From Octopus sinensis (taxonomy: Eukaryota), in contig NC_042997.1 of assembly GCF_006345805.1 (NCBI RefSeq), positions 109,492,001 through 109,556,000 of the forward strand: a stretch of DNA of 64,000 bases. Reading direction: 5' to 3'. Shown piece by piece: positions 13,612 to 59,797 of the stretch (within the stretch, counting starts at the first letter, position 1; each line of letters begins with the position of its first letter). The notes beneath the pieces were generated by a model. The model had not been told where the DNA came from, made no database searches, and saw only the letters and a program-made list of their open reading frames with translations. The translations under genes were made by a program, and so were the position numbers.

Positions 13612-14187
13612 ATATATATATTATATATATATATATATATTATATATTATACTTACACACATCATATACATATATATACATACATACTCACCACCACACA
13701 CACATATAAATATATATATATATATCAACAATCAAGGAACGGCATAATAGGCCATTCACCCACTAGAAATAACAGCCAAAGCTTCAACCGCAAATAAAAG
13801 TCAATTCCGTAAACAGGAGAAAATTAAAAAACATTTACCCTGTAATTTCTTATACGATGCACCGTTTCATCTGCTGTTTAATGGTAAACTAACCTGATTA
13901 AATTAAATGGCCGTTCCTTGATTGTTGATGTTGGAACTTAAAAATGGTCTATGACTATTTAATTTTTCCACTAGGCCGCTAGTGGCAAAAAATTCTACAA
14001 AATTTTTTTTGCCACCCTATATTGATTAATTGTGAATTTTCTGGTTATTCCGTAATGGAATCGACGGCTTATATTTATTTGCTGCCGATAAATTTGGCGC
14101 GAGTGCGATGATTTGAAAATTTTAGGTCCGATATTACTTGGCAAGGTCGGAAATACCTCGTGAAAATATCTGTTCCGACTTGTGGCT

Positions 14188-14293
14188 ATTTCTTACTGAA
14201 GAATCTGAGGGCCTATGGAAGATTGGCTTGATTTAATTTAATCAGGTAGTTTACCATTAAACAGCAGATGAAACGGTGCATCGTATAAGAAAT
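14188..14293 (+). ncRNA. Type I hammerhead ribozyme (family C, copy 1)
   Basis: ATTTCTTA-CTGAAGA-ATCTG...CAGAT-GAAAC-GGTGCATC-GTA-TAAGAAAT; perfect 8-bp stem I; cleavage predicted after A14285. Confidence 0.9.
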
Positions 14294-14677
14294 TACAGGG
14301 TAAATGTTTTTTAAATTTTCTCCTGTTTACGGAATTGACTTTTATTTGCGGTTGAAGCTTGGCTGTTATTTCTAGTGGGTGAATGGCCTATTATGGCCGT
14401 TCCTTGATTGTGATGTTGAACTTAAAAATGGTCTATGAACTATTTAATTTTTTCCCACTAGGCCGCTGGTGGCAAAAAAATTCTACACAAATTTTTTTTG
14501 CCACCCTATATCGATTAATTATGAATTTTCTGGTTAATTCCGTAATGGAATCGACGGCTTATATTTATTTGCTGCCGATCAATTTGGCGCGAGTGCGATG
14601 ATTTGAAAATTTTAGGTCAGATATTACCTTGGCAAGGTCGGAAATGCCTCGTGAAAATATCTGTTCCGACTTTGGCT

Positions 14678-14784
14678 ATTTCTTACTGAAGAATCTGAGG
14701 GCCTATGGAAGATTGGCTTGATTTAATTTAATCAGGTTAGTTTACCATTAAACAGCAGATGAAACGGTGCATCGTATAAGAAAT
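14678..14784 (+). ncRNA. Type I hammerhead ribozyme (family C, copy 2)
   Basis: Same core and stems; cleavage predicted after A14776, 491 nt from copy 1. Confidence 0.9.
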
Positions 14785-15022
14785 TACAGGGTAAATGTTT
14801 TTTTTTTTTTTAATTTTTCCTGTTACGGAATTGACTTTTATTTGCGGTTGAAGCTTTGCTGTTATTTCTAGTGGGTGAATGGCCTATTATGGCCGTTCCT
14901 TGATTGTTGATGTTGAACTTAAAAATGGTCTATGACTATTTAATTTTTTCCCACTAGGCCGCTGGTGGCAAAAAAATTCTACAAAATTTTTTTTTGGCAC
15001 CCTATATTGATTAATTATGAAT

Positions 15023-15069
<47 letters not shown>

Positions 15070-15070
<1 letters not shown>

Positions 15071-15297
15071 GGAGAGAGAGTAGGAAAAAATCAAAAGACG
15101 AAGGCAGGTGGTGTACAAAGCCAAACAGATGTATTAGTATAACGCTCAGGAATAGAAAAAATCTTTTACGTTTCGAGCCTACGCTCTTCTACAGAAAGGG
15201 ACACAGAAAAAAGCAAGGAGAGAAACAAAAGGAGAAAAAAATGAAGAGAAAAAGACAAGGAGAGAAAAAAATGTGTATAGAAGCTAACGATCTATTA
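15070..15297 (-). mobile_element. Short HHR-bearing element (family D); ribozyme at 15163-15198
   Basis: Minus strand CTTT-CTGTAGA-A-GAGC-GTAG-GCTC-GAAAC-GTA-AAAG; homologous to 31395-31575 and 57658-57858; the sense 3' end abuts (TA)n. Confidence 0.7.
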
Positions 15298-15698
15298 TGA
15301 CTTACACACACAACACACATGTGTATGCCTATACATTTATCCTTTTATTTCCTTCAGTCATTTGACTGCCGCCATGCTGGAGCACCACCTTGGTGGGTTT
15401 TAGTCGAACAAATCGATCGCAGGAGTTCTTTTTACAGCCTAGTATTTATTTTATCGCTCACTTTTCCTGAACTACTAAGTTACAGGAACGTAAACACACC
15501 AAAAGTGGTTGAGAAGCAGTGATAGCGTTCAAACACAGACACAAAGACATACACACATAGATATATACATATAAATACGACGGGCTTTTTTCAGTTTCCG
15601 TCTCCCAAATCTACTCACAAGGCTTTAGTCGGTGCGAGGCTGTAGGAGAAGGTACCGTGCCTATACAATGTGTATATATGTGTGTATATATGTGTGTG

Positions 15699-15730
<32 letters not shown>

Positions 15731-15839
15731 TGCGTGTGTGCGTGTGTGTGCGTGTGTGTGTGTACATATATGTACATATATATATATGTATTGTATATAT
15801 ATATATGTATATATAAGTATATATATATATATATATATA

Positions 15840-57550: not shown

Positions 57551-57569
57551 TTCTATCTATGTATCTATG

Positions 57570-57657
<88 letters not shown>

Positions 57658-57660
<3 letters not shown>

Positions 57661-57855
57661 AGAGTTAACGAAAAAAGCAAAAGACGAAGCCGGGTGGTGT
57701 ACAAAACAAAACAAACAGATGTTTAGTATAACGCTCAGGAATAGAAAAAAGCATTTTACGTTTCGAGCCTACGCTCTTCTACAGAAAGAGACACAGAAAA
57801 AACAGGGAGAGAAACAAGGAAAGAAAAAAAATGTGTGTAGTAGCTAACGATCTAT

Positions 57856-57858
<3 letters not shown>
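57658..57858 (-). mobile_element. Family D element; ribozyme at 57754-57788
   Basis: Close homolog of 15070-15297; in (TA)n. Confidence 0.7.
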
Positions 57859-57937
<79 letters not shown>

Positions 57938-58242
57938 ATGTATATATGTATATATGTATGAAAGGGGTTCAGTGAACTTGCTCTGTTAAAATATTAAAAA
58001 AAAAAAAAATTAATGTGTCCTACTTGTTAAAATACTATTTATTTATTTGTGGAGCTGAAGGTAGCACTACATTCAAATTGTTGTAATGATTGGATTGTTC
58101 GAGTCACTTGAATCGGTCGTATTGCATTACTACTTGATATCCTGTTGTTTATTTTGATTTTATTCACCTTACTTCGAGCTGCGTGGATATACCGGACTGA
58201 CTTTGTGCTTCAACTTAAGTACCTAATTCAACTAAGTCTCAA

Positions 58243-58288
<46 letters not shown>

Positions 58289-58289
<1 letters not shown>

Positions 58290-59797
58290 CAACAATTGAG
58301 GTAAAATTAATTAATTATTAATCAATTCACCAAGTATTCAGTATGTAAAGGGACCATTTAAGGCGAATTCAAATTATTACATTATATAAAAGGGCTTAGT
58401 AAAATAAATTACTTTGCCACATACTGAACTCATTAGAATAGTAGCTAAAAAAACTTTTTTAAAACTATTTCTAATACTTAAAGAAAATCTCTCTCATATA
58501 GTGTTTGCTCAATTCAACTCACGAAAGTATGGGGGTAAAGACATTCAAAAATCAAATGCAAAGGTTATTTGAGAACGTACGTTTCAAGATTAGTCAACTC
58601 GACATTTCTATCATCAGCTCAGAACTCCTTGGTTTGGATTTGAAAACACTGAAAGTGGGAGCATACCCTTTCGGCTTCTTATCGCTTCTGAAGATCTGCT
58701 CGAAACTAACAGTGCCAGCAAATCCAAATATGCAAGCGAAGAATTCTGCTCTCCCCTTTCCACCAGGTGGGTTAAAATCAGTAAACACTATGCTTTTTCG
58801 GTAAAATCCGAAGCATTAAATAGAGAGAGATGAATTATAATTTCAACAATTGAGGGTAAAATTAATTAATTATTAATCAATTTCACCAAGTATTCAGTAT
58901 GTAAAGGGACCATTTAAGGCGAATTCAAATTATTACATTAATAAAAGAGCTTAGTAAAATAAATTACTTTGCCACATACTGAACTCATTAGAAATAGTAG
59001 CTAAAAAAAAACTTTTTTAAAAACTATTTCTAATACTTAAAGAAAATCTCTCTCATATAGTGTTTGCTCAATTCAACTCACGAAAGTATGGGGGTAAAGA
59101 CATTAAAAAATCAAATGCAAAGGTTATTTGAGAACGTACGTTTCAAGATTAGTCAACTCGACATTTCTATCATCAGCTCAGAACTCCTTGGTTTGGATTT
59201 GAAAACACTGAAAGTGGGAGCATACCCTTTCGGCTTCTTATCGCTTCTGAAGATCTGCTCGAAACTAACAGTGCCAGCAAACCCAAAATATGCAAGCGAA
59301 GAATTTCTGCTCTCCCCTTTCCTCCAGCGTGGGTTAAAATCAGTAAACACTATGCTTTTTCGGTAAAATCCGAAGCATATAAATAGAGAGAGATGAATTA
59401 TAATTTCAACAATTGAGGGTAAAATTAATTAATTATTATCAATTCACCAAGTATTCAGTATGTAAAGGGACCATTTAAGGCGAATTCAAATTATTACATT
59501 ATATAAAAGAGCTTAGTAAAATAAATTACTTTGCCACATACTGAACTCTTAGAAATAGTAGCTAAAAAAAACTTTTTTAAAACTATTTCTAATACTTAAA
59601 GAAAATCTCTCTCATATAGTGTTTGCTCAATTCAACTCACGAAAGTATGGGGGTAAGACATTAAAAAATCAAATGCAAAGGTTATTTGAGAACGTACGTT
59701 TCAAGATTAGTCAACTCGACATTTCTATCATCAGCTCAGAACTCCTTGGTTTGGATTTGAAAACACTGAAAGTGGGAGCATACCAAGTGGGAGCATA

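Follow-up and report, generated by a model that had tools for sequence, protein, structure and literature searches.

Two fixed end sites in the hammerhead retrozyme arrays of Octopus sinensis and their likely insertion by two-ended priming

How tandem arrays that carry hammerhead ribozymes come to end at fixed positions beside (TA)n runs, away from the predicted ribozyme cut, is the question raised by a stretch of 64,000 nt of Octopus sinensis NC_042997.1 (hereafter the window), in a genome of 2.7 Gb that is rich in microsatellites. The window holds three such arrays of two tandem families, one of family C (13725-15022) and two of family F (32848-34778 and 58286-59799), with periods of about 492 nt (C) and about 560 nt (F) and one type I hammerhead in each unit. 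The units are non-coding and lack a long terminal repeat (LTR); stop-free stretches of about 90-126 residues lie over the F arrays and none is listed over C. A sequence-only reading of the window had ascribed the junctions to a 13-mer recognised by a reverse transcriptase (RT) on a circular template. Its proposal of a fixed internal copying start far from the ribozyme cut is supported by the end map of ribozyme-picked arrays given below. The two families are regarded here as non-LTR retrozymes that were likely inserted by a Penelope-like protein in trans through two-ended priming, probably on circular RNA.

End sites of the arrays

Loci were selected by the ribozyme alone (659 C and 2060 F matches), and both ends were mapped in the first arrays of each family along the largest contig (33 C, 36 F). 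In these 69 arrays, 103 of the 105 3'-type ends (in the ribozyme sense) fall at two sites per unit, a proximal site (P) and a distal site (D) about 100 nt apart. For family C, 26 ends lie at about +131 to +135 from the cut (P), 22 at about +238 to +242 (D) and 2 elsewhere (48/50 at the two sites); for family F, 28 lie at about +195 (P), 27 at about +286 to +294 (D) and none elsewhere (55/55). The windows around P and D amount to 7% of the unit and contain none of the 31 5'-type ends, which are evenly spread (Kolmogorov-Smirnov p 0.95 and 0.58). The random distribution along the units that the sequence-only reading had set against its own proposal was not seen in the junction plot of the 69 arrays, and insertion into (TA)n, also proposed there, is borne out by the TA runs that 103 of the 105 3'-type ends touch. 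The C distal junction was matched 803 times in the genome (control 0).

The arrays in the window follow this map, the coordinates of their hairpins and ribozymes being assigned by hand with a possible error of 1-2 bases. The C array is two-armed and flanked by TA runs at both outer ends, with an antisense arm (13725-13908) from site P and a sense arm (13907-15022) to site D. Its P end is the 13-mer itself (13725-13737, minus strand). The hammerhead lies at 14189-14292 on the plus strand (core from 14196, predicted cut after 14285, GUA), followed by a second copy with its core from 14686 and its predicted cut after 14776; on the same strand, a hairpin with CT stands ahead of site P in an internal copy (14877-14900) and another leads into the D end (14964-15022, here +241). 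The first F array is likewise two-armed, with an antisense arm (32848-33329) from site D, where the 13-mer is found (32848-32860, minus strand), and a sense arm (33328-34778) to site P, whose hairpin, CT and end occupy 34725-34778 on the plus strand (modal +195, here +202). Its hammerhead is at 33406-33463 on the plus strand (core from 33413, predicted cut after 33457, GUU), and other cores are at 33973, 34533 and, on the minus strand, 33179. The second F array (minus strand) is one-armed and has 2.7 units, a D end at 58286-58289 and cores at 58617, 59176 and 59734. The junctions other than those with the 13-mer had been said to fall at different positions; instead, 15022 is site D of C and 34778 is site P of F, both overlooked in that reading. 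The sole scattered far end among the three arrays is the 5' end of the one-armed array (59784-59799), which stands at 59784 and is followed by a short direct duplication.

The 13-mer is present beside (TA)n at 13725, 32848 and 58289 as reported, with two extra bases before the TA run at the last of these, and its distance from the hammerhead cut, 131-134 nt in C and 286-287 nt in F, agrees with the earlier estimate. It has 9 matches in the window against 0.39 by chance. With an adjoining TA run it gave 926 matches in the genome (reversed-pattern control 0; 1520 with one variable base), which are neither all independent nor all of family F, some being one fragment that rides inside a coding element; the first 30 comprise 15 C, 1 F proper and 14 relatives at 75-90%. 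In family F proper the TA run is as a rule preceded by 2-4 additional bases (50 of 54 distal ends). The motif could not be upheld as the single cis signal of the system, as it marks P in C but D in F and is lost in relatives. A shared 13-mer signal was rejected because subfamilies related to C or F lack it and have their ends at equivalent structural sites: the two end sites are kept in subfamilies C', G, F' and H and in further C-group members, with a wider spacing in G and H.

The recurring end signal is, on comparison of the sequences, a hairpin with CT rather than the 13-mer. A hairpin and then CT occur at all four C and F sites, and the TA run begins mostly 8-13 nt later, the final 1-4 bases being assignable to element or target alike. 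The 8-pair stem of the P hairpin shows compensatory changes over 20 C-group sequences, with 84% of the cells paired and double changes in 6 of 8 pairs; its covariation is 0.46 against 0.06-0.18 in slid controls, relatedness inflating the shuffle test. Whole-unit folds are ambiguous around the end sites. The description of the two families as unrelated holds in so far as no BLAST match is found between C and F, and is too strong in view of a short block ahead of P, recognised by eye, that is common to both (14858-14870; 33587-33600). It is considered quite probable that the fixed sites P and D are both priming sites.

Each C and F unit has a hammerhead core, a stem I and a palindromic stem III, found by pattern and kept across relatives, in which the stem III palindromes vary in sequence yet persist. 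The assignment of the F cut is backed by subfamily F', in which stem I is perfect and GUA occupies the corresponding position. The genome contains at least 1254 more ribozymes of the C group (control 11). No hammerhead was found among the 150 matches listed in an Rfam scan, these being microRNA and snoRNA models on microsatellites. Large and older C-like and F-like retrozyme radiations were also observed (loci L401-L430 and L186-L215), in which the stem III sequence shifts and the palindrome stays. A further observation concerns subfamily C' (unit of about 470 nt; L123:4700-7001), which carries a TA run inside the unit directly past site P, as though a run of the target had been taken up.

Arms and template

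Head-to-head arrays with two arms combine one P and one D end in 15 of 17 C and 19 of 20 F cases (34/37 in total) of the ribozyme-picked set, the exceptions being one D+D array and two with one unassigned end. In a replication with loci selected by the D junction, the opposite arm has its outer end at P in 18/18 cases (20 loci), 22/24 (30 C loci) and 16/16 (30 F loci), a total of 56/58, and D was never the partner. Edge-cut loci were dropped and, from the arm-length tests, also two-armed arrays with complex centres or unassigned ends. Locus L347 duplicates L345, the two being inverted relative to each other at a distance of 0.75 Mb and identical in both insertion and flanks (a segmental or assembly duplicate); it is still counted in the 16/16 above and in the 93 insertions below, and was dropped from the counts of cut pile-up and crossings. 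Among one-armed arrays both sites serve as the end (C: 10 P, 6 D; F: 8 P, 6 D and one cut off). Two-armed coding Penelope-like elements, described below, have one short and one long end in (TA)n in 9/9 cases for family P1 (20 loci) and 7/7 for family P3 (15 loci), so that the tail rule is near-obligate overall (106 of 111 two-armed cases), with tails of about 103 nt (C), 97 nt (F), 150 nt (P1) and 55-60 nt (P3). Inversion had been taken for an occasional event; the two-armed insertions instead obey this rule of one P and one D.

C and F thus display a fixed 3' end, scattered 5' truncation, an inverted arm and a tail at one end only, by which Penelope-like insertions are recognised; target-site duplications are unreadable, all ends lying inside (TA)n runs. 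That both families move by Penelope-type retrotransposition is held with high confidence.

In 93 P+D insertions with a simple centre the inner ends are scattered and most inner overlaps are of 0-3 nt. In 31 of the 93 the arms are non-nested, so that neither can have been copied from the other, which excludes the fold-back of one complementary DNA (cDNA) for a third of the cases. Lockstep synthesis, with arms of equal length, was considered and dropped (10/55 in the first set, 5.5 expected; 4/38 in the replication, 4.4 expected).

The longest arm has 6.8 units. Because P and D lie just 130-290 nt past the cut, a cleaved linear monomer would give short products only, and the longer arms therefore need a circle or an uncleaved multimer. 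Units differ by 0.6-0.9% within an array and by 1.2% (C) and 3.8% (F) between arrays, and opposite arms are as similar as units of one arm. In F, variants shared between arrays reach fixation within the array in 213 of 228 cases (shuffled 7%) and in both arms in 139 of 154; fixation in both arms is also seen for 5 private variants. This uniformity points to a bottleneck of one unit followed by re-expansion, which is simplest on a circle. The cut is crossed at exact length in 140/150 C and 82/84 F crossings, like control positions. In family C, a 10-nt window around the cut contains 13 of the 144 5'-type ends (2.9 expected; scan-corrected p 0.002), a pile-up that would represent run-off from cleaved RNA or, alternatively, stalling at the ribozyme fold. 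Among the sequence records listed as containing these repeats none was RNA, and four runs compared in detail were contigs, which bear on neither expression nor ends nor circles. On balance, a circular monomer is probably the main template. Of the earlier suggestion, the formation of multimers is sustained by the seamless cut crossings and the uniform arrays, the rolling on a circle being its presumptive part.

Proposed mechanism and alternatives

A broken coding Penelope-like element of family P1, with a Hydra-like RT and a GIY-YIG domain and with pseudo-LTRs in direct and inverted orientation, lies on the minus strand of the window at 38845-42836; its D end is at 38845, its inverted arm (42509-42836) ends at P, TA runs lie outside, and hammerhead cores are found at 39140 (minus strand) and 42705 (plus strand). 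Elsewhere in the genome P1 has many open frames of 850-920 residues. P1 and P3 match the features of the Hydra clade (RT and C-terminal GIY-YIG, no CCHH, a hammerhead and a (TA)n target), the motifs being judged by eye against section 11 of PMC8557442; a DKT motif is present in P1, and a CxCX5C linker in the P3 DNA read in frame and not in P1. The Atlas neighbours of the coding families have HTH_animal and GIY-YIG (score 0.96-0.98), and Pfam and PDB searches of the coding-family proteins gave no match. The C and F arrays gave no match to the P1 protein, and the P1 element serves as a model of the helper type, as a candidate only.

P3 was rejected as the helper, the F-type fragment after its frame being a passenger in the microsatellite 3' region. 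In young P3 copies (L216-L260, e.g. L246:4075-4340) a microsatellite-rich 3' region of 2-3 kb was observed, with a short two-armed F-type passenger in most copies viewed, and in L246 a fresh C array lies inside that region. The window itself contains a P3 3' end at 28861-29060 (hammerhead core at 28997, short-site end adjoining a TA run) and an old two-armed Penelope-like remnant of family P2 at 55943-57556 (cores at 56065, minus strand, and 57428, plus strand), whose relatives are decayed.

Every enzymatic step of the two-ended priming that follows is what we infer from the insertions. Transcripts would self-cleave, as the C arm ends piled up at the cut suggest, and the monomers would be ligated to circles, the formation of which from monomers is established for other animal retrozymes. 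A dimeric Hydra-clade RT/GIY-YIG protein would cut both strands of a (TA)n run, and each cut 3' end would pair with the 1-4 A/U bases that directly follow a hairpin, the one end at P and the other at D. The outcome, observed as such, is two minus-strand copies whose template stretches overlap and whose lengths are scattered and independent of each other (up to 6.8 units). Their inner 3' ends may then anneal through short or palindromic matches, and fill-in would give a head-to-head insertion with a tail of about 100 nt at one end; where one side fails, a one-armed and 5'-truncated array ending at P or D would result. A more general model is put forward tentatively, in which a dimeric enzyme might hold one circular RNA at two hairpin-marked sites and prime from each target strand, with no separate second-strand primer; the tail would then equal the P-D distance, retrozymes would be minimal circles that keep the ribozyme and two handles, and their ends would record ribozyme cutting in vivo.

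Several observations weigh against the two-ended priming of C and F. The P and D windows were taken from the same mapped ends, so that the p-values are post hoc and the D-selected sets serve as the replication. Covariation of the D hairpin is weak (1 of 13 pairs, 5 sequences), and the hairpin spacing differs in G, H and the coding families. C variants are fixed within arrays in only 14 of 28 cases (shuffled 3%), and F shows no pile-up at the cut (0/106, 1.9 expected), which may fit its weaker GUU cut and one-pair stem III. The search for the helper, for which the 13-mer had been offered earlier, gave none: the ends of P1, P2 and P3 (families sampled) lack the C and F sequences. No coding element was found among 30 C-related, 30 H-family and 20 distal-site loci, and none bearing C/F-type ends in helper searches through P1 and P2 (by protein), P3 (by DNA), H, the minimal-hammerhead family and the C relatives, the RT candidates listed being the best 150 of 12,183. 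Lastly, the arms are coextensive in 18 of the 93 insertions (4.4 expected, both sets), often with a palindrome at the centre, as fold-back predicts.

In a fold-back from a single priming site, the cDNA would prime itself at a palindrome, as proposed in PMC3846280, and the endonuclease would trim the second end at the other site, endonuclease-mediated resolution being discussed in PMC8557442. The coextensive arms with palindromic centres, one of which recurs at the unrelated loci L297, L332 and L334, and the correlation of arm lengths (rho 0.49 and 0.48) would be expected of it. As the general source of these insertions it is nevertheless rather unlikely: the 31 non-nested pairs are impossible by self-copying, one-armed copies end at either site, and all coextensive cases have at least one arm of less than 300 nt, with none among the 37 insertions in which both arms exceed 300 nt. 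The palindromes also suit the annealing of two minus-strand ends, and coextensive arms would fit either fold-back or the joining of two cDNAs by annealing after both had stalled at the same point. L1-type twin priming on one linear RNA combines a fixed 3' end with an internal second primer and gives adjacent, non-overlapping arms; the head-to-head geometry and the overlap of 0-3 nt at most inner junctions resemble its products. It is very improbable here, as both outer ends are fixed, the arms overlap widely and the inner end of the D arm is not clearly beside P (C 6/34, 4.1 expected; F 5/21, 2.3 expected). Helitrons have a subterminal hairpin at their ends, and the hairpin 10-17 nt before the end, the tandem copies and the uniform arrays would also suit a DNA-level element, either a Helitron-like rolling circle or a satellite grown by unequal exchange. 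Such an origin is hardly credible given hammerheads retained through many sequence changes, scattered 5' truncation, C ends at the ribozyme cut and the same plan in RT-coding elements; unequal exchange, moreover, makes no new fixed ends in thousands of dispersed TA runs.

Two-ended priming could also proceed without circles, the template being either read-through RNA in the form of uncleaved multimers or linear monomers copied with repeated template jumps. The anole element needed no cleavage in vitro, with unprocessed RNA as the main substrate (PMC11167929, in the experiments concerned); F has no ends at the cut, and homogeneous source arrays would yield homogeneous daughters. Linear copying only shortens arms, however, and would leave new variants in single units, whereas F variants are fixed across units and the private variants in both arms, and template jumps would not be expected to leave seamless cut junctions. 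A route without circles is an unlikely alternative of some weight.

Neighbouring elements and known systems

Among the other features of the window, abundant short elements with an atypical minimal hammerhead-like core occur at 15070-15243 and 57655-57840; their 3' end is fixed at a single point beside a TA run, their 5' ends vary, and neither an inverted arm nor a coding part near the match was seen in 30 loci of this family. A small hammerhead element lies between TA runs at 55375-55500 (core 55435, minus strand), and 62900-64000 holds a near-exact 546-bp tandem duplication without a hammerhead, either a local duplication or an assembly artefact. Decayed frames at 46575-47335, 50172-51076, 52016-52497 and 60001-60339 may be fragments of non-LTR retrotransposons, which they resemble.

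Animal non-LTR retrozymes, their circles and a proposed Penelope helper have been treated by Cervera and de la Pena 2020 (PMC7229834) and in a preprint by Li et al. (10.64898/2026.07.22.740005). Like these, C and F consist of dispersed, non-coding tandem units of low GC content, each bearing a single type I hammerhead; their units of 490-560 nt exceed the 170-400 nt given in PMC7229834 and lie inside the 51-972 range of the preprint. In the sections concerned, these works contain no map of insertion ends, two start sites or inverted arms, and the link from retrozymes to Penelope rests there on co-occurrence and on similarity to pseudo-LTRs (pLTRs). C and F are classed as non-LTR retrozymes and, judged by their ends, appear to work like Penelope-like insertions.

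For Penelope-like elements, circular templates have been proposed (PMC4209133), and an inverted pLTR with a tail of 30-40 bp at one end is described in the relevant parts of Arkhipova et al. 2013 (PMC3846280), Craig et al. 2021 (PMC8557442) and Schostak et al. 2008 (PMC2377424). Partial tandems, a head-to-head 5'-truncated arm, an extension at one end only and palindromes at some inversion junctions are shared with C and F, whose (TA)n targets are also those given for the Hydra and Naiad clades. Unlike the insertions described there, those of C and F are multimeric and non-coding, with arms that reach 6.8 units and a near-obligate tail rule, and their tails are of about 100 nt; since those of the genome's own coding elements are longer too, a length of 30-40 bp does not hold for the family as a whole. 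In the in vitro work on Anolis Poseidon (Frangieh et al. 2024, PMC11167929), the tail is set by two internal start sites that lie downstream of the hammerhead, cleavage and extension in AT-rich DNA affect both strands, and a dimer is predicted; no difference in start site was seen between the strands and, in the data presented there, no reads end at the ribozyme cut. In C and F, by contrast, an insertion makes use of a different site on each strand, and C shows a pile-up of ends at the cut.

The inverted pLTR with a one-sided tail and internal initiation at two sites in a Penelope-like element (PMC11167929) are therefore already known. Searches of the open-access literature gave no end map of retrozymes, no near-obligate P+D pairing interpreted as a separate site for each strand, no tails as long as 100-150 nt and no genomic ends at a ribozyme cut. 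The phenomenon is real and general across thousands of copies, and is a variant of a known system. The end-level evidence from thousands of young copies indicates that retrozymes bear the full Penelope integration signature. With a 500-nt non-coding RNA, two defined handles, a TA-run target and candidate helper frames of 900 residues in the same genome, the mechanism can be tested directly. The origin of tandem and inverted Penelope-like insertions is stated to be open in the pertinent sections of PMC8557442 and PMC11167929; one-of-each ends and non-nested arms favour two-ended priming over self-priming, and the non-nested arms of C and F argue against self-priming as the general cause of Penelope-like inverted arms.

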